Source: Bacteroidota bacterium (GTDB lineage: Bacteria > Bacteroidota > Bacteroidia > 2-12-FULL-35-15). Taken from it: a stretch of 63,798 nt of DNA. The translations under genes were made by a program, and so were the position numbers. How positions within the stretch are numbered: the first letter of the stretch is position 1; the number at the start of each line of letters is the position of its first letter. The stretch spans positions 1 to 63,798 of the forward strand of contig JAZKBX010000100.1 in the NCBI GenBank assembly GCA_040388455.1. Reading direction: 5' to 3'. The notes under the pieces were generated by a model. It saw only the letters and a program-made list of their open reading frames with translations, had not been told where the DNA came from and ran no database searches. Of this stretch, positions 18,515 to 59,987 are shown piece after piece.

Positions 18515-18515
18515 A

Positions 18516-25824: not shown

Positions 25825-25836
25825 AATTAATAGTGT

Positions 25837-25874
25837 AAAAAAAAGCGTGAGTTCAATTGGATAGGACTCACGCT
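25837..25874 (-). terminator. Intrinsic terminator/attenuator between nosZ and the accessory nos genes
   Basis: On the minus strand, hairpin GCGTGAGT..ACTCACGC followed by T8. A second hairpin lies at 25892-25921. Confidence 0.6.
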
Positions 25875-25936
25875 GATTAAATCTTTATATAATCCTGACA
25901 GGTTTTTTAACCTATCAGGATTGATTTTGCAATAAA

Positions 25937-27928: not shown

Positions 27929-27993
27929 AAAAAATTGTTTATTTATTTGTTTGTTTAATTATTGATTGCTATTATTTATATGCCAAGGACTAT

Positions 27994-28482
27994 TTATGGA
28001 TTAACTCCATCATTTTTGCGCATGAATTCCAATAGGTTTCTTGCTTCCTCATCGGTCAAACTTTGATTTGGCATACGCACAAGGCATATTTCCAACATTG
28101 CTTGTGCCTCAGGATCTTTATCAATCATTGGGTCGGGATTTGTAATAAAATTCATGATCCAATCCGGATGTCTGCGTGTTGTTACACCTGCCCAGCCCGG
28201 ACCAACCAATTTTTCACCGGTAAGTTTGTGACATGCAGAGCATTTCACATCAAATGTTTTTAAACCTGCTTCCGCCATCTGAACATTTAGTTTTTCATCA
28301 AGTTCAACATCTTCAAATTTCCCTTCACCACGTTTGGGGTCATAACTTGGGTTTTCACTTGCTTCTGTTGTTTCAGTTTTTGTAGCTTCTGTTCCTTCTG
28401 CTACCTTATTTGACTTGTCATCTCCGCACGAAGACACAATTCCTAATAATCCTAAGATTGATAGTACGACTATTTTTTTCAT
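27994..28482 (-). CDS. Monohaem c-type cytochrome lipoprotein (NosC-like electron donor)
   Basis: Lipobox IVSSC; CSACH; distal Met region; first gene of the nos operon. Confidence 0.85.
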   Translation of the reverse strand: MKKIVVLSILGLLGIVSSCGDDKSNKVAEGTEATKTETTEASENPSYDPKRGEGKFEDVELDEKLNVQMAEAGLKTFDVKCSACHKLTGEKLVGPGWAGVTTRRHPDWIMNFITNPDPMIDKDPEAQAMLEICLVRMPNQSLTDEEARNLLEFMRKNDGVNP

Positions 28483-32423: not shown

Positions 32424-33146
32424 TTATTTTTCTTTATCACCTGCTAATTTCCTGAGGTTAGATTCATTGGGTATTATAAAATTTTTGCCATCTATTTTAA
32501 TTATTTTTTTTGTTTCCAGTTGAGTTAGGTTCCTTATAACACTTTCATAAGTGGTCCCTGCTATATTGGCAATATCCTTGCGTGGAAGAGTGTAATTAAG
32601 TTTGTGTTTTTCTTTTGGGTTATAGCCAAAAGCATCAATCAACGTGCAAATAATTTTTGCCACCTTTGTTATCACCTCTCCATGAATCATGTGTTTCATT
32701 TGTTCTTCGGTTTTTCGTAATTCATCCGAAAAGAAAGTGATCAGAAAAAGGCTAAATTCAGGATTTGTTTTTATTAATTTTAGGAAAATTTCAATGGGAA
32801 TAAAAGTAACTTCAGTATCCGAAAGTGCTATTGCGGAGATGGGGTAATTTTTAGATGACATACCTCTGTGACCAACCAGAGAGCCCTTGTTTGCTAATCG
32901 TAAAATTCGTTCATTGTTTTTGTCAAAAGCAGAAACAACCTTTACCATTCCTTTATTTATGAAGTACACTCCGGTTACTTTATCACCTTCGGTTATAATT
33001 CGTTGGTCTTTTTTGAAATGTTTTACTACTAAAAAACTTTTTACCAAAAACATCCATTCATCTGAGCAATAACCCGACAAAAAACGTTCGAATTCATTTA
33101 AAGATGTTCCTTTTGTATTTTTACTATTTCCTACTTTCTTTATCAT
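32424..33146 (-). CDS. CRP/FNR-family regulator without an N-terminal Cys cluster
   Basis: cNMP-binding fold; HTH DIANIAGTTYESVIRNL; no C-x2-C motif. Confidence 0.85.
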   Translation of the reverse strand: MIKKVGNSKNTKGTSLNEFERFLSGYCSDEWMFLVKSFLVVKHFKKDQRIITEGDKVTGVYFINKGMVKVVSAFDKNNERILRLANKGSLVGHRGMSSKNYPISAIALSDTEVTFIPIEIFLKLIKTNPEFSLFLITFFSDELRKTEEQMKHMIHGEVITKVAKIICTLIDAFGYNPKEKHKLNYTLPRKDIANIAGTTYESVIRNLTQLETKKIIKIDGKNFIIPNESNLRKLAGDKEK

Positions 33147-40059: not shown

Positions 40060-40629
40060 TTAGTTTTGTTTTTTTGTAATGGTAACTAATAAATTGGATA
40101 ATTCATTGTAAAACTCAATGGGTTCGGCAGTTTGTAATTTCGCCTGGAATTTTTCTCCAAGTTCGGTTAGATGTGAATACATGAATTTCTGGTAGGCATC
40201 TTCAACAATAAATGATTGTTCTTCATCTTTTGCTAAAGCCTTTTTTACCGAGAGCAATGAAGCGAATTCTAATTGATATATAATTGAATCAGGACTGTCA
40301 CCACTTTTTGCATTCATGCCGAACGCTTTGTAAAATGCCGCAGCATCTGCTACGCAGTTCATTTTTTCACAAACAGCGGTTTCTGTTGTTGGAATTGTAC
40401 CTTTCAAAAACACCCTGGAATATTCTCTTAAAATTTCTTTATAATCCATGTTTTTTTGTATGGATCTCAAATATCCATGAATTTCTAGATCCAGATCACC
40501 ATCTTTTAATAGGTCATCAATGATAGAATCTATGTCATCACATTTTTCCTGATCCGGATATGAAAAGCCCATACTCAGTATCCTGAACAAATCGGCTTTT
40601 ATTAAATTTTTGTCTATTGCAGTTTTCAT
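40060..40629 (-). CDS. TorD/NarJ/DmsD-family redox-enzyme maturation chaperone
   Basis: 189 aa all-helical; position between gamma and tatA; ..Y...F pattern. Confidence 0.7.
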
Positions 40630-40635
40630 GTTTTT

Positions 40636-41523
40636 TTATTTTTGTGTAGTGAGATCGATCCATTGTGAATAATGTTTTTTTCCACTTATATTTTCAAAAT
40701 GTCCGTTCCAGATTGCGAACGCAATTTTTGTTGGTATAGTCAGGGGAGCATCATCCTTATCAGGTGAAACCATAGGGCGGGTAAAAATCACTTTCCAGGT
40801 ATTGTTTTCCCATACACCCCATGCAGTGGCATTCTGATTGGTTTGAGTTGTGAGGGTTCCAAAACTCTCTGCCATACATTCTTCAGAAGGTTCTTTTCTA
40901 TCAAAGATGGACATTGGATTTCCTGCATAGGCTGCGGGCATGAAATTTTTGCCGGCCCCTTTAGAATAATCAAGTGCTGAAATATCTTTTGCAAACTTCC
41001 CTTTGGTTCCATCCCCTTCTTTTTCTGCCATTGGATAAATATCTGCCCAGTAATTCGGATATGCATCCTTCACGTCACGGAAGCCGTTTTCAACATCATG
41101 CTGCCAAATTGCTTTCCAATGAATGATATGCACTCGTCCATTTTTGTTACCCATCATAAAAATCGGAAGGGTGTCAGGGTGCATCGGTAATTGAATTGCC
41201 ACTTGGTCGCAGAACTTATCTGCCTCAACAATCATATCTTTTGTTGAATCAGTCCACTCCAATAAAAAAGCTATAGTGGTTCCATCATTAATGGATTTTA
41301 CTTTTATGTTTTTTACTGATGGAATAGTTAACATCGGAGTAGTGATGTTTTGTGGAAGCACAGGAATAGTAGTCGCTTGGATATCCTTCCATACTGCATT
41401 ATTTACTTCACGAAAAGGAATGTTCGCTGCTTTCCCCGATTTTATTATGATTGCAGTTGGTTGGGCAGTTGCAATACTCTCTGACAGTGCTGTTATTGCC
41501 GCTAGAAAAATTAGTTTTTTCAT
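40636..41523 (-). CDS. Periplasmic haem-b gamma subunit, ethylbenzene-dehydrogenase (EbdC/NxrC/SerC)-like
   Basis: Sec signal peptide, no further TM, ~270-aa beta-rich domain, downstream of beta. Confidence 0.65.
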   Translation of the reverse strand: MKKLIFLAAITALSESIATAQPTAIIIKSGKAANIPFREVNNAVWKDIQATTIPVLPQNITTPMLTIPSVKNIKVKSINDGTTIAFLLEWTDSTKDMIVEADKFCDQVAIQLPMHPDTLPIFMMGNKNGRVHIIHWKAIWQHDVENGFRDVKDAYPNYWADIYPMAEKEGDGTKGKFAKDISALDYSKGAGKNFMPAAYAGNPMSIFDRKEPSEECMAESFGTLTTQTNQNATAWGVWENNTWKVIFTRPMVSPDKDDAPLTIPTKIAFAIWNGHFENISGKKHYSQWIDLTTQK

Positions 41524-41570
41524 GTTTCGTTTTTTTATAATTATTAATCCTTTTGAAATTAATTTTTATT

Positions 41571-42701
41571 TTAAGGAGTATTGTGTCTGAAAGTTCCATG
41601 GTCTTTATCATCGTATGGTCTTACATAAACGGGTTCTGTCATTGGAACTTTTGTTACCACTTCTCCTTTTTCATTGTACCCTACCGTAAAATCTCCTTCT
41701 CTTTTGTAATGATGAATTGTTTTTGGCGAGTTACCGAATAAAAGAAAAGCAGCAAGTAGATCTTTATCATTTTTGAGGTTTTTATACATTTCAACCGCTT
41801 CGTCAACTCCCGGACCAAACATTTGATGTAAAAAATCTTTAGGTACATGGATTGGTGGGATGTAATATACATTGGGCTCTGTTCCGTACTGCGGATACAA
41901 TGGCAAAGCAATTTTTTTGATGTGTACAATTTGGTCAATCGGGTTGTCTGCTTTTGCTTCCCCAGGTTTGCTCAGGAATCCCTGCATCCTGATTTTCCCT
42001 ATACATGTTTGAACACAACGAGGTTGTTCGCCTTGCTCTATCAATGGATAGCAACCGATACATTTTTCAGATACACGTGTTACCATATTGAAAAATGTTT
42101 TTTTATACGGACAAGCTTTTATACATTCTTTGTATCCCCTGCAACGGGATTCATCAATTAAAACAATTCCATCTTCGGGTCTTTTATAAATTGCTTTTCT
42201 TGGACATGCCGCTAAACATGCAGGATAAGTGCAATGATTGCAGATACGTGCTAAATAAAACATCCAGGTATCATGTATTCCGTTAAAAAAAGCTCCTTTG
42301 TTTACAATGGAAGAACACTCATCTTCGCCCATGTTTGGAAATGCGTAATCTCTTTCAGCAGGTCTCCATCCATTTACATTTTCTCCTTTGGTGTCGTCAA
42401 AAATAGTTTTGCCTTTGTATTCTCCACTCGCTTTATCCCACGATTGCTCCCCCATCATTTTAAGTGTATTCACATCCCACTTTAATGGATATCCACCGTA
42501 TGGTTTTGTTTCCACATTGTTGAAGAACATTGTTTCTTCGCCCTTACCGGAGGTCCAGGTTGTTTTACATGCAACAGTACATGTTTGACATGCGATACAT
42601 TTATTGGTATCAAAAACAAATGCTATTTGTTTGTTGGGTCTGTTGTCATCATAAGGATATTTCATATCCCTTTTTAGCTGCCAGTTTTTTACTTGTGCCA
42701 T
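41571..42701 (-). CDS. Fe-S (3x[4Fe-4S]+[3Fe-4S]) electron-transfer beta subunit, NarH/NxrB-like
   Basis: FDTNKCIACQTCTVAC; ICNHCTYPACLAACP..AIYKRPEDGIVLIDESRCRGYKECIKACPYKK..SEKCIGCYP, near-collinear with NarH as I recall it. Confidence 0.9.
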   Translation of the reverse strand: MAQVKNWQLKRDMKYPYDDNRPNKQIAFVFDTNKCIACQTCTVACKTTWTSGKGEETMFFNNVETKPYGGYPLKWDVNTLKMMGEQSWDKASGEYKGKTIFDDTKGENVNGWRPAERDYAFPNMGEDECSSIVNKGAFFNGIHDTWMFYLARICNHCTYPACLAACPRKAIYKRPEDGIVLIDESRCRGYKECIKACPYKKTFFNMVTRVSEKCIGCYPLIEQGEQPRCVQTCIGKIRMQGFLSKPGEAKADNPIDQIVHIKKIALPLYPQYGTEPNVYYIPPIHVPKDFLHQMFGPGVDEAVEMYKNLKNDKDLLAAFLLFGNSPKTIHHYKREGDFTVGYNEKGEVVTKVPMTEPVYVRPYDDKDHGTFRHNTP

Positions 42702-42759
42702 GATAATTTCTGTTTTTAGTTAAACTATTACTAAATAATTCGGTGCTTAATATTTAAGA

Positions 42760-45700
42760 TTATGTATTATAATAACCGCCCTTCATATACTTTTTCAATT
42801 CCTCACTTTCATAAGTCGGGCGAATTCCTTTTTCTGCACCTTCCCATAATCCTTTTCCATCAAGCCCGCCTTTTTCTGCAAATGTTACTTTTACAAATGA
42901 TTCTCTTGGCGCTCCCGTTGCGCCATGAACGTCCAGTTCAAATCCTTTACCTACCATTTGTCCGAAGTGGTTTTTCCTTACTAATGAATCAGTAAGAAGT
43001 GTTGGATTTAACCAGGCCCTGGTACAACTTTGATGTGATCCTCTCCGGAACAATGATTGATAACCGGTTTTTTCATTTTTTGCTAAACCTGTTGCATCTT
43101 TTTTTGAAGCCGCAACCGAACCGTAAGTGGCACCGTAAGCATTGTGCCACATTCTGAGAACACCCATGGGAGTTCCGGGGTAGTATCTTGCACGGCACAA
43201 TAAGCGGGAAAGTTCATAAGCATCCGTGTTTTTTTTCTGTTGCCACCCTCGGAATGGACGATCCTCGGGATCAGCATCTACATATACATAATCACCATCT
43301 TCCACTCCAAGTGCTTTGGCATCATTAGGGTTGATATCCACATACATTTCGGTCACGAATGGGGTACGTTTATCAGCTCTGTGCATGTCGCCAAATGGAC
43401 CAAACCAAACCGCTACGATATCTGTATCTACGGGCGTTGTATGTGCACCGTGTCGATATTTTGGTGTGTGGAAAATAAATTTATATTCTTTATCTGCTGT
43501 GGTTAATGGATGTTTCGTTAACTTTTCCTCACTCCAGGGTTTTACAACGTTTCTTCCCTGACGCACATCACCGGACATATTGTCTCTTGAAACACCATAG
43601 CTTTCGGGTGAAGCCGGTTTGATGGCCGGATGCGGATTTGAAACAATCACATTTGGTTCATAGAAAGTTGAATCAATCGGTTCTCTGTGTACAGGCATAT
43701 TTTCACCTGCGGCTAAAAATTCTGCTTCATCCCGGTAGAATTCTAATCGTCCTGTTTTTGTATACCATTGTTTCTCTTCGGCAACTTGCTCATAACCGCT
43801 ATGTTTAGGATACGTCCTTGACATCAATAAAGAGGGAATACCTTGTTTCGCTTTTGCTTCTATTTCCAATACATTATAACCTTTGGTTGCAGGACTCAGA
43901 TCAAATACTCTCTGTAAATAGACTTCAGGTTTTCCTTCATTCATAAATTTGAAATAATCGCTGAAACGTTTATCTCCTGTCAGTTTTGCCATTGCATTAG
44001 CAATACCTGCAATGGCTTCGAGATCCCCTTTGGTATCATAGATTCTTGCTAAAGGAGTTCTTGGATAAACATATAAGAATGGATTTGTTACCGACATGGT
44101 AGCATCCGGTGATTTGAATTCGCCCCAGGAATCCACACCAAAAACAATATCAGCATACTCACAAGAACCTGTCCACCACCAATCAAATACGCCTATAAAT
44201 TCTACTTTTGGGTAAGAGTTTACAACTGCTTCATAGTGTCCTTTATTATTTGCCAACAATGAATTACCATTGGAAACCATAACGGATTTGGTAGGTGTAG
44301 GCATGTGTGTATCTCCTGTTAATACTTTGTTACCTACTTTTAACATACGATCACTGTTGTTGAAAAAATGTGCGGATTCGTATGAGAAATATTTTTTGAC
44401 ATCAGCCGGTTTTCCTTCTTCCATTTGAATATTAAATGGATTCTCTAAAATATACGAAGGAAGGCCGCTGAAGTATGCAGCACGGTAATTGCCCGAAAAA
44501 CTTCCAACGTTGCCCCCAACTCTTCCAATATTTTTTGTCAAGGAGGCAAGTAATAGAACTGTTCTGTCTTTCAATACATTGTTAAAAAACTGGTTCGGGC
44601 CCATTCCCATTGCGAATAATGTTTTACCAGAATTTTTTGCGATGTCTCTTGCAATGGTTTTAATACCTTCTACCGGTGCCCAGGTTATTTCAGAAACAAT
44701 TTCAGGTGTAAAGTTTTCATTCACGTACTGTTTAATTAAATCGAAAACAGTTCTCACTTCCACTTCCTTCCCATCTAATAATGTTACTTTATACTTACCT
44801 TCAAGTGATGGGAAAATGCCTTGTGCATTCATTTTTTTTCCATAATCATCTCTACAGATTGGTTTAGCAGCATTTAGTTTTTCATCCCAGATCATAAAAT
44901 CTCCCCAGTCCTTTCTATCTTTATCGGAAACAAAGGCACCCGCTTGTTTTAGCATAGGAGTTGCTTTTTCTCCATCTTTCATTACATGGATATAATCAAC
45001 GATATCTTTATTCTGGTAATCTTTTATTACCTCAGTGGGTTTTAAGAATTGATTATTATCCATTCTTACCAGGAAAGGCATATCTGTGAATTTCTTCACA
45101 TACTCAACATCAAATAAGTTTTCATTGATAATAACATTAGTAAAGCCCAATGCTAAAGCAGGTGTAACTCCTGGTCGAACGATCAATACATTATCTGCTT
45201 TGTTTGCTGTGGCACTGTATTCACAAGCAATTACAGTAACTTTTGCACCTTTCATTCTTGCTTCTGTGAGCCAATGTGCATCCGGCATTTTTGTGGTGAT
45301 CCAGTTCATCCCCCAAACCACAATATGGTCGCTATGTTCAACACAAACCAAATCATAATCCATCGCTTGCTGGCCCGTTACCATTGCATGGCCCGGAGGT
45401 AAATCTGTATGCCACGCAAAACTATCCCAGGCTCTGGCACCTTTAGCCTCCTCGGGACTGCATTTATTTATTTTTGAATCAAGCAATGCAAGTGAATTTG
45501 CAAAACGATTCATGCCAAAAATCCTGGTAACACCTAATGCCGCCATCCCACCTCTGAACTTCAATACCTGAACTCCTTTTCCATGTGTAGCTTCAATCAT
45601 TTCAGGAGCATAGCCTTGTTCTTCCAGGTATCTTTTCCCTTTTTTTCCGTTATAAGTGGTAGCGATATTTTGCAATACCTTAGCAGTTAATTCAGAAGCT

Positions 45701-46239
45701 TCCTCCCAAGTGATTTTCACGAAAGGTTCTTTTCCTCTTCCTTCAAAATATTTTGCAGGTGCTTTACCATTACTTTCTCTTGGGAATCCATCTTTTACCC
45801 ATAACAAAAATCCTTCGCGTGCAACAGGCGATTTAACCCTTCTGTCGCCATAAAATCTTCTGTGCAGTGCCAATCCTTTTTGGCAGCAACGTGGCTCCCA
45901 CCTTGCCGATGCTTTGTTGCCCTGCAAATCTTCTGCGTGTGAAAATCCAAAACTTGGTGCAATACGCACTATGGTGTCATTTTTTACATGTGCCTTCAAT
46001 AAACAATTATGCGTGTCGTTGGGAGCGCAGAGGAAAGTAAATTCACTTTCATGCTTCCATAAATCCCGGTATGTTTTTTCCCAATCACGATTAGGGTATG
46101 CTGCAAGTGGGTTTTTAACATCAACGGGATCAAAAAATGCAAAAGTTTTGCTGAACCCTTGAGCTTCTAATTGAGATACAACAATTGCACCCATCGCTGC
46201 AAGGGAAACATTTCGGAGGAATTTTCTTCTACTGTCCAT
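42760..46239 (-). CDS. Tat-exported bis-MGD molybdoenzyme catalytic subunit, NarG/NxrA-like (type II DMSO reductase family)
   Basis: SRRKFLR twin-Arg signal; [14 protein letters not shown] (NarG RDWEDGYRQRWQHD); FS0 segment C71-x3-D75-x3-C79..C119; TKMPDAHW (NarG TRTPDAHF, Mo-ligand Asp); 1159 aa. Confidence 0.9.
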
Positions 46240-46351
46240 ATTTTTAAGATTTATTTTGTATTTGCAAAAAACAGTTATTTCCTAAATTGTTTTTTAATTT
46301 TTTTTACTGAAAAATTGCATCTGTTATTAATTTATTTTACCGCTCACAATA

Positions 46352-46765
46352 TCATGGCTTTGCTGTTTTTGGCTTAGTCTGCGACTGCGGCTGTGGTTTT
46401 TTTGCTGTTACTACTTGTTGTGGGCCACTTTGTGATTTGATATAACCTACGATCGCTTTAATATCAGTATCTTTTAAATCCAGAAAATCCGGCATTACAA
46501 TAGAGTTGTATTCAAGAAATAATGCTTTAGCTTTTGCATCCCCTGAATTAATAACAGATTGAGAGGATTTGATCCACTTCACCAAATAGGTGGCATTGTA
46601 TTTTGAATGTACTCCTTTTAAATCAGGGCCGACCAAACGCCCGTTACCAATAGAATGACATGCCGCGCATTTGGAAGCAAAAATTGCTGGACCATCCTGC
46701 GCTTTTGCAGAAAAAAATAAGGCGAATAAAACAACAGTGATCGGAAGAATTAGTTTCTTTTTCAT
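46352..46765 (-). CDS. Monohaem c-type cytochrome with a Pro/Gln/Lys-rich C-terminal tail
   Basis: Signal/anchor, CAACH, distal MPDF; first gene of the molybdoenzyme operon. Confidence 0.85.
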   Translation of the reverse strand: MKKKLILPITVVLFALFFSAKAQDGPAIFASKCAACHSIGNGRLVGPDLKGVHSKYNATYLVKWIKSSQSVINSGDAKAKALFLEYNSIVMPDFLDLKDTDIKAIVGYIKSQSGPQQVVTAKKPQPQSQTKPKTAKP

Positions 46766-46978: not shown

Positions 46979-48292
46979 TTATTGCTTGAGGAAGTTGGGC
47001 TTAAATGTGACCATAATAAATGCCCAATTACTTATCTGATCTGTACGTCCATCTTTTTTCCAATCCAAAACTCCTTTTAGTATCCCCAATGTTTCGGTAG
47101 GTAAAAATTGTGAATAGCCGGCCGTAATCAATACTCCACCAGATAGAATATAACTTGCAGTAACATCTATTTCAGTACCTAACGAATTGCTCATGGCGGT
47201 GTATTTTCCTGTTTTGATCAATTCTTTTGGATCAAGAACATCAGCGGCCGACATGAATTCATGGACATCGAAGGAAGCATTCCATTTTTCTGTTTTATAT
47301 TTCACCTTTAAATAGAGGTCTTGTAAACCAACATTATCAATATGGTTTCCTACATAAAAATAATCCATAGTGCCATTGAACGCATGGTTGGTACCAAAAA
47401 TGGGATTGAATGAATGGTTAATTTCTTTATAAGTTTTTGAGGTATCTGTACCGCTTTGTCCCGAAATGTATTCATAACCTAATCCAATTGAAATTTTTTC
47501 TTTAATAGAGTAAACGGCATCAACACTACCAAGAATTGCGGCTGTCTGTTTTTTGTTTTTGTCAACACCGGTTTGATAATAGAAATTGAGTCCAACAAAA
47601 AAAGGTTTGGCTTTGTATTCCGTATGTGATCCAATAGTTGTAATATAGCGTGTGCTGTTTATGGCTGCCGGAGACTGCTGGCCAACATTCAATGCTAATA
47701 AGCTCACTTTTATTTTATTTATATTTTTGTTCAGCCACAGGTATTGCATTTCTTTATAACTATTTGCGATAGCATAAGATGTTCCCACATAAGATTCTGA
47801 ATTCTGATTATAGGCAGCACCGGCATGACAAGTAAAAGTGCTGTCGGTATATTTTAGTAAAAAGGCATCGTGGCTTCTGCCTTGCTGCGCCCAGGCAACC
47901 CCACCTAAAATGCGTTCATCATCATACACAATTTCCTGACGACCCATTTTAATTGATACTTTTTTTGAAAAAAAATATTCGGCCCAACCTTGATTTAATC
48001 CCGATGTACTATTATCATAACTATTTAGTTGACTTTGACTTCCCCAGATCCTTATATCTTGTAATACAATTCCAACTTTGAAATTATCTGATTTATATCC
48101 AAAATTTAATCGCGTTCGCTGCGTAACGAACATAGCTGCTTTTTGAAGTGTATCAGCCGGAGATTTAAATCCATGGCGATATTCAAATCGTGGGCGTATT
48201 TCTCCCGTTAATGTCATTTGTGCATTTGCGATTGCGGCTGTTACAGCTATGATTGTTGTGGTCAGAGCTCCTATTAGTGTTTTTGTTTTCAT
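46979..48292 (-). CDS. Outer-membrane beta-barrel porin, alginate-export (AlgE)-like family
   Basis: Signal peptide; GEIRPRFEYR.. start; alternating beta-strand pattern; C-terminal aromatic-rich strand. Confidence 0.75.
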   Translation of the reverse strand: MKTKTLIGALTTTIIAVTAAIANAQMTLTGEIRPRFEYRHGFKSPADTLQKAAMFVTQRTRLNFGYKSDNFKVGIVLQDIRIWGSQSQLNSYDNSTSGLNQGWAEYFFSKKVSIKMGRQEIVYDDERILGGVAWAQQGRSHDAFLLKYTDSTFTCHAGAAYNQNSESYVGTSYAIANSYKEMQYLWLNKNINKIKVSLLALNVGQQSPAAINSTRYITTIGSHTEYKAKPFFVGLNFYYQTGVDKNKKQTAAILGSVDAVYSIKEKISIGLGYEYISGQSGTDTSKTYKEINHSFNPIFGTNHAFNGTMDYFYVGNHIDNVGLQDLYLKVKYKTEKWNASFDVHEFMSAADVLDPKELIKTGKYTAMSNSLGTEIDVTASYILSGGVLITAGYSQFLPTETLGILKGVLDWKKDGRTDQISNWAFIMVTFKPNFLKQ

Positions 48293-48491: not shown

Positions 48492-48544
48492 CTTTTGTAG
48501 AAGAGATTCTTTTTTACTTTGCAGTATATTTTAAAGATTTGGAA

Positions 48545-49264
48545 ATGACAAAAAAGACAAATAAAATTAATGTTCCACATTGTTCACGATGCGATTCATT
48601 TAATTCTTCTATGTTTTGCTCTCTAAATATTGTTGAAGAATCAAATCTTTCTGATAATAAAGTTCATAATCTTTATAAAAAAGGGCAAATTGTTTTTTAT
48701 GAAGGACAGCAATCGAGAAATCTATTCTGTGTTTTTTCCGGAAAAGTAAAAATATTCAAATTAGGTGATGATGGAAAAGAACAAATAGTTCGTTTTGCAA
48801 AAAAAGGTGATGTTATTGGGTACAGAGCTCTTCTGGGAGGAGAGAAATATTTCGCATCGGCATCTGTAATGGAAGATGCTATGATCTGTAGTTTCCCCAA
48901 ATTTACAATTGACGAGTTGCTTAATTGTAACTCGAAATTTGCAATTCAAACGATCAAATTACTCTCCAAGGATTTAAGAATTGCAGAACAAATAATATTG
49001 AATATGGCTCAAAAGCCTGTAAGGGAGCGTATTGCTGAAGCATTGATAATGCTGAAACAATATTACGGCATTGATGAACTAACAGAAACCATTAATACAA
49101 CTCTAACACGCGAAGAAATTGCAAACATTGCAGGGACATCTACAGAAACGTGTATTCGTATTTTATCAGAATTCAATAGTGATCATATTATTAAGATCAT
49201 TGGTAAGAGTATAAAAATAACTAATATTCATAAGCTATTGCAAATAGCGAATGTGAGTGATTAG
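48545..49264 (+). CDS. CRP/FNR-family regulator with an FNR-type N-terminal Cys cluster (paralogue of 12249-12971)
   Basis: HCSRCDSFNSSMFC (C-x2-C-x8-C); HTH EIANIAGTSTETCIRIL; ends IANVSD like its paralogue (IANLSD). Confidence 0.85.
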   Translation: MTKKTNKINVPHCSRCDSFNSSMFCSLNIVEESNLSDNKVHNLYKKGQIVFYEGQQSRNLFCVFSGKVKIFKLGDDGKEQIVRFAKKGDVIGYRALLGGEKYFASASVMEDAMICSFPKFTIDELLNCNSKFAIQTIKLLSKDLRIAEQIILNMAQKPVRERIAEALIMLKQYYGIDELTETINTTLTREEIANIAGTSTETCIRILSEFNSDHIIKIIGKSIKITNIHKLLQIANVSD

Positions 49265-49418
49265 CATTTCGGATCAGCTGAGATTTTTGTTTGCTTTTCA
49301 AATTTTTTGTTGGCTTAGTCATTTCTTGAAAATATTCTTTCAATTTTTGAAAAAAAAATAGCTGACCAAAAAAGTAATAGAAAAAGTAATTGTTTCGAAA
49401 GTCTTATTTTATGCTTCT

Positions 49419-49432
49419 ATGACTCGTATCAT
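49419..49432 (+). promoter_or_regulatory. FNR/CRP-type box ATGAC-TCGT-ATCAT upstream of the regulator-norCB-like operon
   Basis: 35.5 nt from the G of a perfect TAtcTTTG (49454-49461). Confidence 0.65.
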
Positions 49433-49487
49433 ATTTTAAAAATTTTCCTGCTAATATCTTTGTTGTGTTAATATTAATAATTTGAAA

Positions 49488-50225
49488 ATGAATATTGCCA
49501 AGAATATTATTGCTTTTTCAGAGAATTCTGTAAGTTGTGAAAATTGCTGGCTCAACAATTTTTCAGCTAATGTAAATTGCTCAACCGAATTCCTGGATAA
49601 AATCCTTTTGAACAAAGAGGAGAAAAATTATAACAAAGGGGCATACTTAATTAAGAGTGGCGTTCTTGTGTCAGGCGTTTATTGTATTCAAAAAGGTACT
49701 GTTAAAGTTTTTAAAAAGGGGATTAAAAATAAGGATTTTATACTATGGGTTGCGCGTAAAGGCGATGTTATTGGCTTGAATTCTTTTATTAATGATGAAG
49801 TATATTCTTTTTCTGCATCTGCATTAGACGAAACTTCTGCCTGTTTTATTCCATCTTCTGACTTGAAAATTCTTCTTAGCAAAAAGCCTGTTGCTTTTGT
49901 TAAATTAATGGGAAATGTTTGTGATAAATTGAATTTTGTGGAACAACGTATTACCAGTATCTCAAAAAAAACTATAAAAGAACAATTTGCAGAAATACTA
50001 ATTACTCTATCCCGGAGCAATTCCGAAAGTGATAAAAATTTAGTTATTAATTATTCAGTTAAGGACCTGGCAAGCTTTGTTGGGACTACTAAAAATTATC
50101 TTTATAAAATCCTGGTGGAGTTTACTGATCGGAAAATCCTCTCCGTTAATAACCGAAAGTTTGCGATAAGTAATATGAATGCTCTTTCATTGATTGCCGC
50201 AGGGGAAAATAAATTACCTAAATAA
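49488..50225 (+). CDS. CRP/FNR-family regulator, Cys cluster C-x2-C-x10-C, divergent recognition helix
   Basis: SCENCWLNNFSANVNC; cNMP fold; HTH FVGTTKNYLYKILVEF lacks the E--IR of the other three. Confidence 0.8.
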   Translation: MNIAKNIIAFSENSVSCENCWLNNFSANVNCSTEFLDKILLNKEEKNYNKGAYLIKSGVLVSGVYCIQKGTVKVFKKGIKNKDFILWVARKGDVIGLNSFINDEVYSFSASALDETSACFIPSSDLKILLSKKPVAFVKLMGNVCDKLNFVEQRITSISKKTIKEQFAEILITLSRSNSESDKNLVINYSVKDLASFVGTTKNYLYKILVEFTDRKILSVNNRKFAISNMNALSLIAAGENKLPK

Positions 50226-50236
50226 GATTTTATATT

Positions 50237-50662
50237 ATGTCCACAAAATTAAAGCGTTTTGTTTTCTGGGGTTTATTTTTCTTGTTTATATTATATGGTT
50301 TTTTCATCTATACTTCGGGTACTGAAAATGATGGGGGAAAAAGATTCTTAACAGAAGAAGCAAAACGTGGCAAATTATTATTTCAGGAATACAATTGTAC
50401 TTCTTGTCATCAGTTGTATGGACTGGGAGGTTATATGGGGCCTGATCTTACTAATGTTATTTCAGATCCGGGAAAAGGAGAATCATACGTAAAAAGTTTT
50501 ATTAAAAATGGGACGCAGCAGATGCCCAATTTTCATCTCAGCGAAATGGATGTGAATGCGCTTACAGAATATCTTAATTATGTTGATAAAACAGGCATTT
50601 CTCCGGTAAGGGATTTTGAAGTACGGTATGACGGAACAATTATGCAAAAAGCTATTCAATGA
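50237..50662 (+). CDS. NorC-like membrane-anchored monohaem cytochrome c
   Basis: N-terminal TM; RGKLLFQEYNCTSCHQLYG.GGY.GPDL; MPNFHLSE, collinear with cNOR NorC as recalled. Confidence 0.8.
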   Translation: MSTKLKRFVFWGLFFLFILYGFFIYTSGTENDGGKRFLTEEAKRGKLLFQEYNCTSCHQLYGLGGYMGPDLTNVISDPGKGESYVKSFIKNGTQQMPNFHLSEMDVNALTEYLNYVDKTGISPVRDFEVRYDGTIMQKAIQ

Positions 50663-51987
50663 AAAAGGAGGTTGGGGTATTTTTTATTTTTCTATCTATC
50701 GTGGCTTTATTGGCCGGGATGTTTTTTGGTAGTTTAAGTGCTTTCCAATTTGTTTTCCCTGGTTTTTTCGATCTGTTACCTTTTTTTAAAAATAGGCCTC
50801 TTCATGTTTCATTGGTGGTTTCATGGATATTTCTGAGTGCAATTGGTGGGATCTATTATTATATTCCTAAGTATTGTAATCTACCGTTATTCTCTAGAAA
50901 GATGGCGGTAATACATATATGGCTATTCATTGTTACAGGATTACTTATTTTAATATGTTATTTATTTGGGAAATTTGGGGGGCGCGAATATTGGGAATTT
51001 CCTGCTATTTTAGCCATTCCTGTTTTTATGTCATGGGTTTTATTTGCATTTAATTATTTTAAAACTGTATTTAAAAAAATCGGTCAATGGCCTGTATACT
51101 TGTGGATGTGGGCAACGGGGATATGTTTTTTTTTATTCACTTTCACTGAATCGTATTTATGGGTATTCCCTTATTTTAGAGATAATCTTATCCGAGACCT
51201 AACTGTTCAATGGAAAGCTTATGGTGCATTAACAGGGTCCTGGAATATGCTGGTATACGGTACCGCTATTTTTGTAATGGAGCGAATAAAGGGAGATGAA
51301 ACAGTTGCTAAATCTAAATTGGCATTTTGGATGTATTTTTTAGGACTTACCAACTTGCTGTTCGGATGGGCTCATCACATTTATATTGTACCTACCGTGC
51401 CTTGGATAAGATACCTTGCTTATGCCATCAGCATGACCGAATTGTTGATACTTTCTAAAATTATTTGGAACTGGAAAAGCTCGCTTGAACAAGCCAAAAA
51501 GGATTATTATTTTTTGCCTTTTCGTTTTCTTGTCGCATCCGATGTATGGATATTTTTAAATTTGATACTTGCTATTTTAATTTCTATTCCTGCTGTTAAT
51601 GTTTATACTCATGGTACCCATATTACTGTTGCACATGCTATGGGTAGCGCCATTGGTATCAATACTATGATCTTGTTATCATCCGTATTATTTATTATTA
51701 ATGATGTTACAAAATTTAATTTCCCTAAAATTCAAAAAAATATTATTCGTGCAGGATTTTGGATCACAAATATTTCCCTTCTTGCTTTTTTGATCTTCCT
51801 GACCATTGCCGGAGCTGAAAAAGGGATTTTAGTGATTGAAAATAAACTTTCATTCCAGGCAATTATGCAAGAGATATCCCCTTATCTGATATCTTTTGCC
51901 TGGTCAGGTTTGGGAATTTTTATTGGTTTGATAATGACAACTCTTCCTCCATTGATTGCTATGTTTAAATACTTAAAGAAGAAATAA
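50659..51987 (+). CDS. NorB/CcoN-like haem-copper-oxidase superfamily subunit I with non-canonical active-site residues
   Basis: 12 TM. H49 (helix II), HH239-240 (helix VII) and H326 (helix X) are present. Helix VI has no His or Glu, and H-x-H is replaced by H-A-M. Confidence 0.8.
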   Translation: MKKEVGVFFIFLSIVALLAGMFFGSLSAFQFVFPGFFDLLPFFKNRPLHVSLVVSWIFLSAIGGIYYYIPKYCNLPLFSRKMAVIHIWLFIVTGLLILICYLFGKFGGREYWEFPAILAIPVFMSWVLFAFNYFKTVFKKIGQWPVYLWMWATGICFFLFTFTESYLWVFPYFRDNLIRDLTVQWKAYGALTGSWNMLVYGTAIFVMERIKGDETVAKSKLAFWMYFLGLTNLLFGWAHHIYIVPTVPWIRYLAYAISMTELLILSKIIWNWKSSLEQAKKDYYFLPFRFLVASDVWIFLNLILAILISIPAVNVYTHGTHITVAHAMGSAIGINTMILLSSVLFIINDVTKFNFPKIQKNIIRAGFWITNISLLAFLIFLTIAGAEKGILVIENKLSFQAIMQEISPYLISFAWSGLGIFIGLIMTTLPPLIAMFKYLKKK

Positions 51988-52035: not shown

Positions 52036-53232
52036 ATGTCAAATTCCGGAGTTTCATTTGAAAATACAGAAAAGGCCTTTATAGCTAAAGGCAGTCAGGA
52101 GCTGAAACATTCACTCTGGCTCTTTAAGCTAATGGGCAGCCCTACACTTGTAAAAGTGTTTTCAAAGCTTATTCTTTTCGCAATAAAAATTCGCCTGCCT
52201 GTGAGTTTACCAATTAAGCTAACCATATTTAAGCAGTTTTGTGGTGGTGAATCTATTGAAGAAAGTAAAAACGTTGTATATAAACTCAATATATCAAATA
52301 TTGGTTCTATCCTTGACTATTCAGTTGAAGGTAAAGAAAACGAAAATGATTTTTGTAATACAAAAGATGAAATTTTAAGAATTATAAAAGTAGCAGAAGA
52401 CAATCCTGCAATACCATATACTAGTCTTAAGCTTACCGGTATTGCTCGTTTATCTTTACTTGAAAAATTGAATTCCAAACAACAATTAAATAAGGAAGAT
52501 GAAATTGAATTTCAAAAAGTTAAAGGACGACTCGTTGAGATTTGTAATAGTGCTTCCAATTCTGTCGTACCTATTTATTTTGATGCTGAAGAAAGCTGGA
52601 TACAGGACGCTATTGATACTTTAGCGGAAGAAATGATGGAGATTAATAATAAAAAAACTGCTATTGTGCTTACCACTCTTCAGATGTATCGTTGGGACCG
52701 GATTGAATATCTTAAGGGACTCATACAAAAGGCAAGAGGTAAGAATTACAGCATTGGTATTAAACTGGTTCGAGGTGCTTATATGGAAAAGGAAAATCTC
52801 CGAGCTTCACAATTGGGATATAAATCACCCATACAAGCAAGTAAAGAAAATACAGATAATGACTTTGATAAAGCTGTTGATATCTGTCTTGAAAATATTG
52901 ATATTGTTACATTATGCGCAGGTACCCACAATGAGGCGAGTACAATGCATCTGGTTAATAAAATGGGCGAACTAAAGATCCCCAATGATCACCCGCATGT
53001 TTATTTTTCACAGCTCTATGGTATGAGCGATCATATTACTTATAATTTGGCCGATGCAGGTTATAATGTTACTAAATACCTTCCTTATGGTCCTGTTAAA
53101 TCAGTTATGCCTTATTTGATCCGAAGGGCTGAAGAAAATACGGGTATTTCAGGTCAGATGGGAAGAGAGTTAAGATTGATAATTGAGGAAAAGAACCGAA
53201 GACAAAGTTCAAAATTACTTTCCGCTGGTTAA
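52036..53232 (+). CDS. Proline dehydrogenase family protein
   Basis: VRGAYMEKE; FSQLYGMSD; YLPYGP....PYL.RR..EN. Confidence 0.85.
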   Translation: MSNSGVSFENTEKAFIAKGSQELKHSLWLFKLMGSPTLVKVFSKLILFAIKIRLPVSLPIKLTIFKQFCGGESIEESKNVVYKLNISNIGSILDYSVEGKENENDFCNTKDEILRIIKVAEDNPAIPYTSLKLTGIARLSLLEKLNSKQQLNKEDEIEFQKVKGRLVEICNSASNSVVPIYFDAEESWIQDAIDTLAEEMMEINNKKTAIVLTTLQMYRWDRIEYLKGLIQKARGKNYSIGIKLVRGAYMEKENLRASQLGYKSPIQASKENTDNDFDKAVDICLENIDIVTLCAGTHNEASTMHLVNKMGELKIPNDHPHVYFSQLYGMSDHITYNLADAGYNVTKYLPYGPVKSVMPYLIRRAEENTGISGQMGRELRLIIEEKNRRQSSKLLSAG

Positions 53233-56597: not shown

Positions 56598-58046
56598 ATG
56601 AAAAAAAACAGTATATTTTTAATTGTGGCAATGCTTCTCTCCTTTTCTTGCGCAAAGGATAGGGGTAATCCCGATTATGAAGGGTACCCGAAGAATGTCG
56701 GTGAGATCATTGTTAACAAATGCAGTATGAGTGGTTGCCACAATTCGGTTAGTTCGGATGCTTGTGCCGGTCTCGATTTGTCTTCATGGGAAGCTATGTT
56801 TAAAGGAAGCAGAAATAATTCTTCTGTTATACCTTATCGCTCCGATCATAGTTTTTTATTGTTTTCAGTTAATACATTTAGTGACTTAGGACCGCAGATG
56901 AATCCAGGTATGCCTTTAAACAAAACACTATTGAGCAGAAATGAAGTAACTGTCATAAAAGATTGGATAAACCGGGGAGCTCCAAACAACCAGGGGGGAA
57001 TTAAATTTTCAGATAATAATAAACGAAAAATTTATGTCGCTAACCAGGGCTGTGATTTTGTTTCTGTGTTTGATGGCGAAACAAAATTGATCTCCCGTGC
57101 ATTCGATGTTGGGAATAGTGCAAATACTGAAGCTCCTCATGATATGATGGTTTCGCCCGATGGCCAATATATTTACGTATCCTTTTATGCAAGTAATTTA
57201 TTTCAGAAATTCAGAACCAGTGATCATGTAAAAGTGGGAGAATTAATTTTGCCTGATATCAGCTGGCATACGATCGATATATCGGGCGATTCAAAAATTG
57301 CTGTCACCACACATCTTGATGCAAATGGAAAAATGGCAATTATTGATCTGGTGAATATGAGTATTATAGTAACTTATCAGGGAGGAGGTTTGTTTATCTA
57401 CCCTCATGGTTGCGCATTAAATTATGATGGAAGTATGGTTTATACTACTTCGCAACAGGGGAATTTTATTTATAAAGTAAATTTAGCAGATCCTCAAAGT
57501 CCCGATATAAGCCAGGTAGCTTTACAAACAGGCGATGCTCCCACTCCAAATGGAATATATAAACCGTATGATGTAGATTATTTTCCGGACTATTCGAAGT
57601 ATGCCGTTACTTGCCAAGGAACAAACGAATTGCGGATATTTAACGTATCAAATGATAGTTTGTTAAGTATCATCTCCACCACTGGCGTTCCACAGCTAAT
57701 GGCTTTCTCAAAGCAAGTGCCTTATTTATTTGTAAGCTGCATGGGTGATTCCGCTAATTCACAGGCAACAAGCAGTGTGGATGTAATAAATTACAATACT
57801 TTCCAAAAGATCAAAAGTATATTCACAGGACATGAACCCAGAGGAATTAGCGTTGATGAAGAAGGCCGTTGTGTATGGGTTGCCAACCGAAATATTTCCC
57901 CTACCGGCTGGGCTCCTCATCATACAACCGTTTGCCAGGGGAGAAGTGGAAATGTTACTATAATTGATATGAATACATTACAATTAATCCCAGATTGGAA
58001 AACAGAAGTTTCTGTGGATCCTTATTGCATTTCTATTAAAAAATAA
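56598..58046 (+). CDS. Lipoprotein: PSCyt-like N-terminal domain with a C-x4-CH motif plus a YVTN-type beta-propeller
   Basis: Lipobox LSFSC; KCSMSGCH; about 7 repeats of the ..P...V.SPDG..(I/V)YV.. type. Confidence 0.65.
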   Translation: MKKNSIFLIVAMLLSFSCAKDRGNPDYEGYPKNVGEIIVNKCSMSGCHNSVSSDACAGLDLSSWEAMFKGSRNNSSVIPYRSDHSFLLFSVNTFSDLGPQMNPGMPLNKTLLSRNEVTVIKDWINRGAPNNQGGIKFSDNNKRKIYVANQGCDFVSVFDGETKLISRAFDVGNSANTEAPHDMMVSPDGQYIYVSFYASNLFQKFRTSDHVKVGELILPDISWHTIDISGDSKIAVTTHLDANGKMAIIDLVNMSIIVTYQGGGLFIYPHGCALNYDGSMVYTTSQQGNFIYKVNLADPQSPDISQVALQTGDAPTPNGIYKPYDVDYFPDYSKYAVTCQGTNELRIFNVSNDSLLSIISTTGVPQLMAFSKQVPYLFVSCMGDSANSQATSSVDVINYNTFQKIKSIFTGHEPRGISVDEEGRCVWVANRNISPTGWAPHHTTVCQGRSGNVTIIDMNTLQLIPDWKTEVSVDPYCISIKK

Positions 58047-58172: not shown

Positions 58173-59987
58173 ATGAATAATACTTCAGAACATACTTTTC
58201 ATATTCCGGTAATGGGATTGGGGTATACAATTGACACACCAGTAAAGGTTGCCCGATTTGGTATATCCTCCGTGGTTTCAATAATACAAGACGTATTGGT
58301 GGAACAAATGCGTGAGTTTTATTGCAAAAAAGCCGGGGAAGAATATATCCATATTCCAATGGATGATATTGATCACAGGGCTAAACGGGTTACAGCTTAC
58401 CTTGATTTAATTCAGAATATTGTAGATAAACAAGTTGAAGAACTGAAAAAACAAGCTTTTGAAGAAGGGAATGATATCGTAAAATATTTCAGACTGCTTC
58501 CTGATAGTTCTCCTGTTAAACAATTTTATTTTGAAATGACAAAGTTAAGCGGTGAAGAGAAGGAACGTTGTCAAATAGAATTGCGAAGTAAAATTATTGC
58601 CGGAGCCATTGATGTGAATATCATGACGAAGATAGATAATCAGAATTATTCAAAAAAGAATGAACTTCTTCCAATGGAATATTCAGATGCACTTTCTGCA
58701 TTTCGCGGATTTGCCAACAGCTCACTTTCATCCTCTATTGTTTTTTCGGCAGGCTTAAACCCTCGTTTATTCGCCTATCTCGAAAGCTTTAAAGATTTCT
58801 TTCCTGATTCGGAAGGGAATATTAAAAAGAAAATTATTCTGAAAGTGAGTGATTACAGGTCAGCACTTATACAAGGAAAGTTTCTGGCAAAAAAAGGTGT
58901 GTGGATCTCGGAGTTTCGTATCGAGTCGGGCTTAAATTGTGGCGGACATGCGTTTCCTACTGAAGGTTACTTGCTGGGGCCTATTTTAGAAGAATTTAAA
59001 AATAAAAAAAATGAACTCACATCAGAACTTCTTACAATTTGTAATCGCGGACTTGAAGAAAAAAAATATAAAACGTTGCCACTTGAAACTGAAATTCGTA
59101 TCAGTGTTCAGGGAGGGATAGGAACTGCGCAAGAGGATGTTTTTTTAAGAGAATATTATAATGTGGAGGCCACCGGCTGGGGTAGTCCGTTTTTACTGGT
59201 TCCTGAGGCTACAAATGTGGATGATAAAACATTACAATTGCTTGCTAACGCAAAAAAAGAGGATTATTTTTTGAGTCATGCTTCTCCACTTGGGATTCCA
59301 TTTAATAATTTCAGAAAAAGCTCTTCTGAAGATCAACGAAAAACACGTATAGAAAAATTGAGGGCAGGAAGTCCGTGTTACAAAAAATATCTTTCTTTCA
59401 ATACTGAATTCACTGAAAAGCCAATATGTACTTCATCACGGGAATATCAAAATCTGAAATTAAAGGAGTTGACCAACCTTAATTTACCAAAGGCGCAATT
59501 TGAACGCAGATTTGATGAGATCACTGAAAAAGATTGCCTTTGTGAAGGCTTGTCTTCCACAGTGCTTTTAAAGAACAATATTCCGGATCACCATCGTTTG
59601 GAAGCTGTTACTATATGCCCCGGGCCAAATCTTGCTTATTTCTCAAAAACATTTTCTCTTGAGGAAATGGTTGACCATGTATATGGCCGTTTAAATGCGC
59701 TCAATGCATTGAACAGATCACACATGTTTATCAATGAACTTAAAATGTATATTGATTACCTGAAAGCTGAAGTGGATAAGAATTTTAATTCATTGACAGA
59801 TAAGCAAACAAAATATTTTTCCTCTTTCAAATCTAATCTTTTACAAGGGATAGAGTATTATAAACAGCTTATTCCAAATATGGCAAATGAAGCAGAAGAA
59901 TTTAAAAATAAAATGGCAGATGAGATCGAAACCATGAAAAATAACCTGACCAACTTTTATTTTGCCGAAGGTATAAAAACAGTATAA
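58173..59987 (+). CDS. Uncharacterised 604-aa protein with NMO/FabK-like FMN TIM-barrel motifs and a Cys-containing C-terminal region
   Basis: ESGLNCGGHAF, VQGGIGTAQED and GWGSPFLLVPEA resemble nitronate-monooxygenase-family blocks; five Cys between residues ~400 and 480. Confidence 0.5.
   Translation: MNNTSEHTFHIPVMGLGYTIDTPVKVARFGISSVVSIIQDVLVEQMREFYCKKAGEEYIHIPMDDIDHRAKRVTAYLDLIQNIVDKQVEELKKQAFEEGNDIVKYFRLLPDSSPVKQFYFEMTKLSGEEKERCQIELRSKIIAGAIDVNIMTKIDNQNYSKKNELLPMEYSDALSAFRGFANSSLSSSIVFSAGLNPRLFAYLESFKDFFPDSEGNIKKKIILKVSDYRSALIQGKFLAKKGVWISEFRIESGLNCGGHAFPTEGYLLGPILEEFKNKKNELTSELLTICNRGLEEKKYKTLPLETEIRISVQGGIGTAQEDVFLREYYNVEATGWGSPFLLVPEATNVDDKTLQLLANAKKEDYFLSHASPLGIPFNNFRKSSSEDQRKTRIEKLRAGSPCYKKYLSFNTEFTEKPICTSSREYQNLKLKELTNLNLPKAQFERRFDEITEKDCLCEGLSSTVLLKNNIPDHHRLEAVTICPGPNLAYFSKTFSLEEMVDHVYGRLNALNALNRSHMFINELKMYIDYLKAEVDKNFNSLTDKQTKYFSSFKSNLLQGIEYYKQLIPNMANEAEEFKNKMADEIETMKNNLTNFYFAEGIKTV

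Follow-up and report, generated by a model that had tools for sequence, protein, structure and literature searches.

A widespread NorB/CcoN-like protein family, mainly of Bacteroidota, with an altered helix VI and methionine at the second haem b ligand position

We describe here a two-gene unit in a 63,798 nucleotide stretch of Bacteroidia DNA (contig JAZKBX010000100.1, ~34% GC; "the window" below is this whole 64 kb stretch, to which all statements made of it apply), the closest public relative of which is a Bacteroidia metagenome-assembled genome (MAG). Two plus-strand open-reading frames (ORFs), 50237-50662 (141 aa) and 50659-51987 (442 aa), overlap by 4 nt and encode a NorC-like, membrane-anchored mono-haem cytochrome c and a NorB/CcoN-like homologue of haem-copper oxidoreductase (HCO) subunit I, the latter 98% identical to its counterpart in that MAG. 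The larger protein keeps the electron and proton scaffolds of the cytochrome c-dependent nitric oxide reductases (cNORs), has neither His nor Glu in the part of helix VI that supplies metal ligands in cNOR, and carries Met in place of the second haem b His, a pattern preserved throughout a large family. We tentatively read the pair as a cytochrome c-fed NO reductase of the cNOR/cbb3 branch with a remodelled and possibly metal-poor distal site, an assignment that we place somewhat short of an even chance.

The 141 aa protein is, on its matches to Pseudomonas aeruginosa NorC (PaNorC, 3o0r_C, e-value 1.6e-13), to 4xyd_B (7.9e-12) and to Pfam Cytochrome_CBB3, a homologue of NorC. An N-terminal transmembrane segment forms the membrane anchor, the haem c attachment motif C54-T-S-C57-H58 (50396-50410) aligns to the CxxCH of PaNorC, and Met96 in QQMPNF (50522-50524), aligned to the Met of PaNorC RRAMPQF, is the predicted sixth haem c ligand. 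By the same alignment G64 and Y66 correspond to the Ca2+ ligands of NorC (PaNorC G71/Y73). These features, like all those given below for the pair, its regulator and its promoter region, lie on the plus strand.

The 442 aa protein matches Pfam COX1 (1.6e-31), and its best solved relatives are P. aeruginosa NorB (PaNorB, 3.8e-16) followed by cbb3 CcoN. Its AlphaFold2 model (mean predicted local distance difference test score, pLDDT, 86; predicted template modelling score, pTM, 0.88) superposes on cbb3 CcoN and PaNorB (3o0r_B) with template modelling (TM) scores of ~0.83-0.84, the latter at 0.84; structures of nitric oxide reductases that depend on quinol (qNORs) lie at a greater distance (1e-7 to 1e-8), A/B-family oxidases are further away and B-family ba3 is far lower. 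A profile of the family scores PaNorB at 82 bits and cbb3 at 70 bits, with listed family representatives at 137-529 bits, and no curated NCBIfam model claims the protein, the ccoN model giving 45.5 bits against a cut-off of 583. The protein is an HCO subunit I about equally distant from cNOR NorB and cbb3 CcoN. A sequence-only reading of this DNA had described a NorC/NorB-like pair, and this is borne out, as are the ORFs, the count of seven His and the individual ligand matches that it gave.

Those seven His are at positions 49, 86, 239, 240, 318, 321 and 326. Residue conservation was assessed in a close set of 116 full-length homologues (≥62% identity) and in 78 full-length representatives drawn from a profile search of 1.84 billion cluster representatives (50% identity clusters). 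His49 (50803-50805, PaNorB H60) is the axial ligand of the low-spin haem b by alignment and is found in 99% of the 78 representatives, whilst Glu110 of the motif G-R-E-Y (50986-50988, PaNorB E135), the Ca2+ ligand that bridges the haems, is found in 96%. His239-His240 (51373-51378, PaNorB H258/H259) are the two remaining ligands of the non-haem site, and His326 (51634-51636, PaNorB H347) is the proximal ligand of the high-spin haem b3, both assigned from alignment and conservation. Further parts of the cNOR scaffold kept across the family are R46 (R57), H318 (H339, a non-ligand His in cNOR), D180 (D198) and the network of S258/E261/S309 (S277/E280/T330) beside the non-haem site, in which Glu261 (51439-51441) is predicted from alignment and covariation to pair with Lys186. 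Together with two subunits in norC-norB order, a membrane-anchored mono-haem NorC and a 12-helix subunit I, these residues are what the pair has in common with cNOR.

The differences from cNOR are concentrated in helix VI and at one haem ligand. Segment R179-M197 (51193-51249) contains zero His and zero Glu. Alignment on anchors shared with cNOR (G193 to G212, W195 to W214, N196 to E215) sets Y188 at H207, T192 at E211 and Asn196 (51244-51246) at E215, the family-profile alignment turns H207 into an insertion between Y188 and G189, and an ungapped alignment to cbb3 on the shared helix VI VQW anchor places the CuB His at G189. A one-residue deletion between W185 and G189 in the family makes the equivalent of H207 register-dependent, so that Y188-G189 (51220-51225) together mark the place of the lost third His; on these alignments the register of helix VI is ambiguous by one residue, and no register yields a His or a carboxylate. 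The absence of His and Glu at the H207, E211 and E215 positions, proposed in the sequence-only reading, is upheld in every register, whereas the single H207 position that it suggested for survey resolves into Y188 or G189 depending on register, the former variable. Of the two cNOR glutamates E215 and E280, the second is kept as E261. No conserved Tyr occupies either cross-link position, residue 188 being variable and none preceding the His-His pair as in cbb3.

Where PaNorB has H349, its second haem b His, the protein carries Met328 (51640-51642), which all 116 close homologues share and 92% of the 78 representatives have. Only five His (49, 239, 240, 318 and 326) are conserved in ≥90% of the representatives, and because of this haem b is predicted to be His/Met-ligated or five-coordinate rather than bis-His, and the non-haem site of the main clade to lack three His. 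The earlier expectation of at most two canonical His at the non-haem site and a His/Met haem b is thus borne out at the level of the family. Two defining features of cNOR, the bis-His haem b (H60/H349) and the FeB set of H207/H258/H259 with Glu211, of which H239/H240 are left, are accordingly absent.

The family is large. A protein search with the 442 aa sequence returned 3224 matches at E ≤ 1e-5. Another, started from a Sphingobacteriaceae member of the family, returned 2913 at E ≤ 1e-30, and the named matches of the two are nearly all Bacteroidota MAGs labelled 'cbb3-type cytochrome c oxidase subunit I' (NCBI) or 'nitric oxide reductase subunit B' (IMG). The profile search gave 169 clusters at E < 1e-30, and the signature is present in all 150 listed. 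The signature Q184-W185-K186 (51208-51216), which starts helix VI, is invariant in the 116 close homologues, as are G189, N196, H239, H240, E261, H318, H326 and M328, with variation at position 188 (Y/N/G/S/A) and position 192 (V/T); Q184, W185, N196 and M328 are each found in ≥92% of the 78 representatives. The sequence-only reading had focused on helix VI but had not singled out Q184-W185-K186, G189 and N196 as its conserved residues. Family-specific near-invariants beyond cNOR are E164 (100%), Q184, W185, N196, Y200 (96%) and Y242. Glu164 (51148-51150), at the periplasmic end of helix V, occurs in 78 of 78 representatives and faces a gap in PaNorB.

The altered site is, judged by this conservation, under strong purifying selection. 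The notion that the protein is a relic of NorB, degenerate or without catalysis, or else a normal cNOR or cbb3 subunit that has been misaligned, takes some colour from the database labels (cbb3 subunit I or NorB) and from the one-residue ambiguity of helix VI, but with five conserved His only there is no hidden ligand in any register, the altered residues are near-invariant and co-vary over ~170 clusters at 50% identity, the ccoN score is 45 bits against 583, and the ORFs are intact in MAG orthologues (78-98% identical over the full length in eight of them, with residues 102-442 covered at 94% identity in a ninth locus, L009). We find this notion scarcely credible, and the conservation data rule out both the pseudogene and the misaligned ordinary cNOR. 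Nor are the orthologues standard cNORs.

Covariation divides the family in two. K186 occurs with E261 in 79 representatives and H186 with A/G261 in 13, and the same 13 have D189 for G189 and A309 for S309; position 189 is Gly in 99% of this K-clade and Asp in 100% of the H-clade. Because the co-switching positions 261 and 309 are those of E280 and T330, which lie beside FeB in cNOR, residues 186 and 189 would face the distal pocket, and Lys186 is predicted to reach it. The H-clade looks like an independent re-creation of an FeB-like set of three His and one carboxylate from shifted positions, which may be argued as a sign that the family still performs NOR-like chemistry. Thus a His and a carboxylate in a shifted helix VI, absent from the window protein, are carried by H-clade relatives as His186 and Asp189. 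The window protein belongs to the main K-clade, with two His, the Lys/Glu pair, Asn196 and Gly189 plus Gly193. The 13 H-clade representatives (P0229, P0233, P0237, P0238, P0240, P0244, P0246, P0253, P0254, P0259, P0262, P0266 and P0268) derive in part from marine Gammaproteobacteria MAGs (Tara) and mostly have Tyr321 and Ser113; the protein at 10001-11296 of locus L017 (P0274) is a member of the P0233 cluster.

Some distant members are fused. In P0139, P0146, P0153 and P0195 (~790-825 aa) and P0180 (543 aa) the HCO domain is N-terminal and is followed by a FixO/CcoO-like domain and one to three cytochrome c domains, two or three in the polypeptides near 800 aa, an order like that of ccoN-O-P and opposite to the cytochrome domain order of qNOR, which underlines that the family sits between cbb3 and cNOR. 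Likeness to cbb3 (CcoN/CcoO/CcoP; 3mk7, 8smr) thus extends from the fold, with equal TM-scores, and the helix VI VQW to these CcoNOP-order fusions. The family differs from cbb3 in lacking the CuB His207, the cross-linked Tyr and the second haem b His, for which it has Met, and in the window the partner is NorC-like and encoded upstream rather than in a ccoN-ccoO(-ccoP) arrangement, with a ccoN score far under the cut-off. Against cNOR, the family lacks H207 and E211, has Asn for E215 and Met for H349, carries a one-residue deletion before the helix VI ligand position, adds Q184, K186, G189, E164 and Y200, and has no norQ, norD or norE nearby.

The pair lies in an operon with its own regulator. 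The first gene (49482-50225), which ends 11 nt before the NorC-like gene, encodes a Crp/FNR-family regulator that we call FNR2 (Pfam cNMP_binding and HTH_Crp_2; NCBIfam Fnr subfamily, 3.3e-19) with an N-terminal C-x2-C-x10-C. Upstream is a palindromic Crp/FNR-type box, TATGACTCGTATCATA (49418-49433), the core of which is invariant in seven orthologous upstream regions, so that the FNR-family regulator and palindromic box reported by the sequence-only reading are both in place. A candidate Bacteroidetes-type -7 element, TATCTTTG (49455-49462), fits the known TAnnTTTG consensus of Bacteroidetes promoters, with its CTTTGT kept in orthologues, and the box would lie ~42 nt 5' of the transcription start deduced from this element. 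A scan for sigma-70 promoters and terminators returned nothing above chance. A Crp/FNR regulator stands directly 5' of the pair in the window, in loci L001-L008, L019 and L021, in members down to ~60% identity, and a small cytochrome c gene stands 5' of the HCO gene in every unfused context examined.

The box recurs throughout the window. The motif TATGA-N6-TCATA (fuller form TATGAy-N4-rTCATA, with an FNR-type core TGAT-N4-ATCA) has 19 sites where 4.7 are expected, and none of 100 shuffles reaches 19, whilst the canonical Escherichia coli FNR box TTGAT-N4-ATCAA, from which the box here differs in having A rather than T at the outer position, is not enriched in the window (8 sites against 9.4 expected). 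Sites of the 16 nt motif at 12184, 14115, 15353, 16361, 16473, 28544, 46877, 48396, 48477, 49418, 53681, 56546, 58070 and 62007 include many that lie 50-160 nt 5' of operons: those for nitrous oxide reduction (nos), for a molybdenum enzyme of nitrite oxidoreductase (NXR) type, for DUF2249/ScdA/hemerythrin proteins and for a class II ribonucleotide reductase, besides genes for a beta-propeller lipoprotein, a 604 aa protein, an MFS transporter and two Crp/FNR regulators. Perfect copies precede the regulator/cytochrome c/HCO operon in L019 and the 604 aa gene in L010, L015 and Flavisolibacter tropicus. Four Crp/FNR paralogues are encoded in the window (12207-12971, 32424-33146, 48539-49264 and 49482-50225), and the motif probably marks a conserved anaerobic/N-oxide regulon of one of them.

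We infer from this setting that NO would be the most economical substrate, because genes for nitrate/nitrite, for the repair of NO damage and for N2O belong to the regulon whereas no other NOR does (none was found in the window), because the cNOR electron and proton scaffolds are intact, because the H-clade rebuilds an FeB-like ligand set and because a canonical NosZ is already present. The pair would be made under low oxygen as part of the N-oxide regulon. Electrons would pass from a periplasmic or membrane cytochrome c to haem c (His58/Met96), on to haem b (His49/Met328), the potential of which is probably above that of the bis-His haem in cNOR, and then to haem b3 (His326). Protons would come from the periplasm, as in cNOR, and this is expected because the Ca2+ bridge (Glu110 with Gly64/Tyr66 of the NorC-like subunit), the acidic Glu110 and Asp180 on the periplasmic side and the Ser258/Glu261/Ser309 network are kept. 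In the distal pocket, His239/240 would remain, Gly189/Gly193 would widen the space, and the Lys186-Glu261 pair and Asn196 would line it, with a metal held by a 2-His-1-carboxylate set or with the Lys ammonium in place of FeB as Lewis acid and proton donor.

Several points weigh against NO reduction. The canonical FeB set (three His and Glu211) and Glu215, which define cNOR catalysis, are missing here; replacing the equivalent glutamates in Paracoccus cNOR reportedly abolishes activity, and we know of no characterised NOR with a two-His site. The lowest pLDDT values of the AlphaFold2 model (58-67) fall at residues 181-190, 241-250 and 311-330, and Lys186 is placed in the predicted pocket by covariation, not by model coordinates. 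In 12 distinct contexts norQ, norD and norE are all absent within 10 kb, which fits an FeB-free site, nirS/nirK are absent within 10 kb of any member examined, and many contexts elsewhere show the two genes as a unit of their own with housekeeping genes around them. The one opinion in print about a family that is probably this one favours reduction of N2O, not NO (PMC11214002). As to the accessory genes, some true cNORs (Thermus) likewise lack norQ/norD/norE (PMC12067857).

That opinion concerns the 'N2O red' family of Murali et al. 2024 (PNAS 121:e2316422121, PMC11214002), introduced there in one sentence, with no residues given and no biochemistry, as a putative N2O reductase closely related to cNOR and linked to the N2O reductase of Flexibacter canadensis (Bacteroidetes), a membrane-bound enzyme insensitive to acetylene and to sulfide; the size of the family is given as 25 NCBI genomes, 597 IMG hits and 293 GTDB genomes. 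'N2O red' and the present family share a C-family branch next to cNOR, the lack of an active-site Tyr, an unusual active site, the link to Bacteroidetes and a modest size, and by phylum, superfamily position and aberrant site they are very probably the same. The proposal of the sequence-only reading that this is a catalytic variant of the NOR/cbb3 branch rather than a standard cNOR holds, whereas its newness does not, since the family is already in that paper and the low-spin haem of nNOR is also His/Met-ligated, which is suggested to raise its potential by ~150 mV (PMC11214002).

As a haem-based N2O reductase the enzyme would activate N2O at ferrous haem b3 in the polar, enlarged pocket, N2 would leave, and the remaining oxo/hydroxo species would be reduced via the raised-potential His/Met haem b, which we infer would suit so strongly oxidising an intermediate. 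The family matches the published description in being related to cNOR, overwhelmingly of Bacteroidota and without the NOR ligand set. However, a complete clade II nosZ-nosL-nosD-nosF-nosY set lies under the same box in the window and nosDFY occurs in L015, and a second N2O reductase would be redundant because these nos genes are co-resident in both. We know of no enzyme of such a kind shown to reduce N2O. In a scan of genome contigs with one protein, which gave nine close loci, all of them from MAGs, and in the protein search started from the Sphingobacteriaceae member, which gave MAGs only, no match from Solitalea (Flexibacter) canadensis was found. On balance we regard N2O reduction as improbable.

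Other NOR-derived or NOR-like lineages with changed ligands offer partial parallels to the remodelled NO reductase that we favour. In gNOR one active-site His is replaced by Asp (PMC11214002), and the H-clade may do the same with D189; nNOR and gNOR are nevertheless derived from the B family and have a cupredoxin-type subunit II, whereas the present family belongs to the cNOR/cbb3 branch and has a NorC-like partner. NOD, the putative NO dismutase, is another NOR-derived lineage with altered non-haem ligands, but it derives from qNOR, is ~750-800 aa long with a fused N-terminal NorC-like domain and has no functional quinol site, where here there are 442 aa and a separate cytochrome c. Unlike all three, the main clade loses a ligand without a His or carboxylate replacement. 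In non-denitrifying nosZ-II Bacteroidota (Cloacibacterium) an O2-repressed 'cnorB' has been reported (PMC11879220), which would be suggestive of NO reduction if that gene belongs to the present family.

A different chemistry at a metal-poor haem pocket is conceivable, such as low-level reduction of O2 or peroxide, a dismutation-like reaction of NO, reduction of some other small oxidant that arises during nitrate or nitrite respiration, or an electron sink for proline oxidation, and we consider it unlikely, yet a serious contender. No characterised HCO has a comparable set of ligands, Glu164 is fully conserved and family-specific with no cNOR equivalent, and the CcoO/CcoP-like fusions in cbb3 order and the profile scores (70 bits for cbb3, 82 for cNOR) keep cbb3 close. 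There is also a recurrent synteny with proline dehydrogenase, which adjoins HCO members 42-100% identical, with one intervening gene in some. In the window a monofunctional proline dehydrogenase (52036-53232, plus strand; Pfam Pro_dh, 3.4e-75) follows the HCO gene after a 48 nt gap with no plus-strand terminator in it and is possibly co-transcribed; we take it as a putative operon member, and it may be a co-regulated electron donor. It is found downstream of the pair in the window, L001-L009, L015/L016 (42% identical HCO), L019 and L021, with counterparts at 11370-12551 in L015, 12127-13323 in L019 and 11910-13112 in L021, and the whole block of regulator, cytochrome c, HCO and proline dehydrogenase is kept in eight MAG relatives. 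On the other side, reduction of O2 by the HCO mechanism is unlikely with no conserved cross-link Tyr, and an O2 reductase was rejected on this ground; a dismutation has no use for a cytochrome c donor, but in this family the donor subunit is never missing, and the context of the regulon is N-oxide and anaerobic.

The neighbourhood of the operon is rich in genes of N-oxide metabolism. On the minus strand lies the complete Sec-type (clade II) nos cluster (21893-28482), with a cytochrome c, nosZ (942 bits to TIGR04246), a 342 aa NosL-domain protein, nosD, nosF and nosY. Also on the minus strand is the NXR-type molybdoenzyme operon (40060-46765), in which a small cytochrome c gene precedes the Tat-signal alpha subunit (1159 aa; full-length alignment to Kuenenia NxrA 7b04_B, 829 bits), and an Fe-S beta subunit, an EB_dh haem gamma subunit and a NarJ-like chaperone follow it. 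A heterotrophic Bacteroidia genome is thus predicted to carry a periplasmic nitrate/nitrite enzyme of NXR/pNar type. The block of molybdoenzyme, cytochrome c, porin (46979-48292) and a second Crp/FNR regulator is an insertion that the window shares with its closest relative alone. In L015, the 42% identical member is found among nosDFY (8 kb away), the 604 aa gene, proline dehydrogenase, an Rrf2 regulator and a repair/COX1-like cluster.

A plus-strand operon with two boxes 5' of it (16572-19790) encodes a DUF2249/ScdA_N/hemerythrin protein, a DUF1858/DUF2249 protein and a 424 aa membrane protein whose only match is a weak one to COX1 (1.4e-9); this last appears to be another HCO-like protein, of far greater divergence, that goes with genes for the repair of NO damage. 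The counterpart operon in L015 (17532-21118) encodes a 450 aa protein that is only 28% identical to the NorB-like protein across 142 residues (E 2e-4). The 604 aa protein (58173-59987, plus strand; also L010 11501-13315, L015 3787-5622 and L022 10001-11821) has 8000 matches, is widespread in Bacteroidota, always as 'hypothetical' and always with the box upstream, and gave no match in Pfam, NCBIfam or the PDB; it looks like an FMN/TIM-barrel enzyme (ESGLNCGGHAF, QGGIGT) with a C-terminal Cys cluster. Its gene directly follows the NorB-like gene in a Sphingobacteriaceae MAG, adjoins it in L010 and is near it in L015, but stands alone in F. tropicus and L023, and we rejected the protein as an obligatory subunit and keep it as a co-member of the regulon. 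A 482 aa beta-propeller lipoprotein (56598-58046, plus strand, box upstream), syntenic in L001, L003, L006, L007 and L009, has a possible CX4CH haem motif (KCSMSGCH) and weak similarity to hydrazine synthase beta, YncE and lactonase-type (clade III) NosZ models, and it might supply the enzyme for nitrite or NO that the regulon otherwise lacks.

The family is large and has already been noticed in print, every member has a predicted function only, and the labels 'NorB' and 'cbb3 subunit I', given to it as a matter of routine, lack proof. A bolder version, which we rate as a distinct minority prospect, is that the main clade has no FeB/CuB metal whatsoever and that the Lys186-Glu261 ion pair, His239/His240, Asn196 and the Gly-widened pocket replace the second metal; if true, this would be the first HCO-superfamily enzyme to reduce an N-oxide, be it NO or N2O, on one haem aided by an organic Lewis acid/proton donor, and the raised-potential His/Met haem b would feed that single-haem reaction. 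In this version Tyr200 of helix VI, ~11-12 residues below the ligand position and in this comparable to Tyr244 of the ba3 K-channel, could even open a route for cytoplasmic protons together with Ser258, and turnover would then be electrogenic. Through its deep conservation, an HCO that has two His, a Lys/Glu pair and a predicted His/Met haem amounts to an experiment of nature on the purpose of the second metal of the binuclear centre, with the H-clade and its restored set of three His and one carboxylate as the built-in comparison. Among the nosZ-carrying 'terminator' genomes in surveys of denitrification potential Bacteroidota form the main group (PMC12569097), and whether these organisms convert NO to N2O as well, consume N2O along a second route, or do neither, alters how such surveys and N2O-mitigation inoculants are read. 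The residue-level picture of a putative His/Met haem b, two His, a switch of K/G/E/S for H/D/A/A and a Crp/FNR regulon common to nosZ makes this function directly testable.

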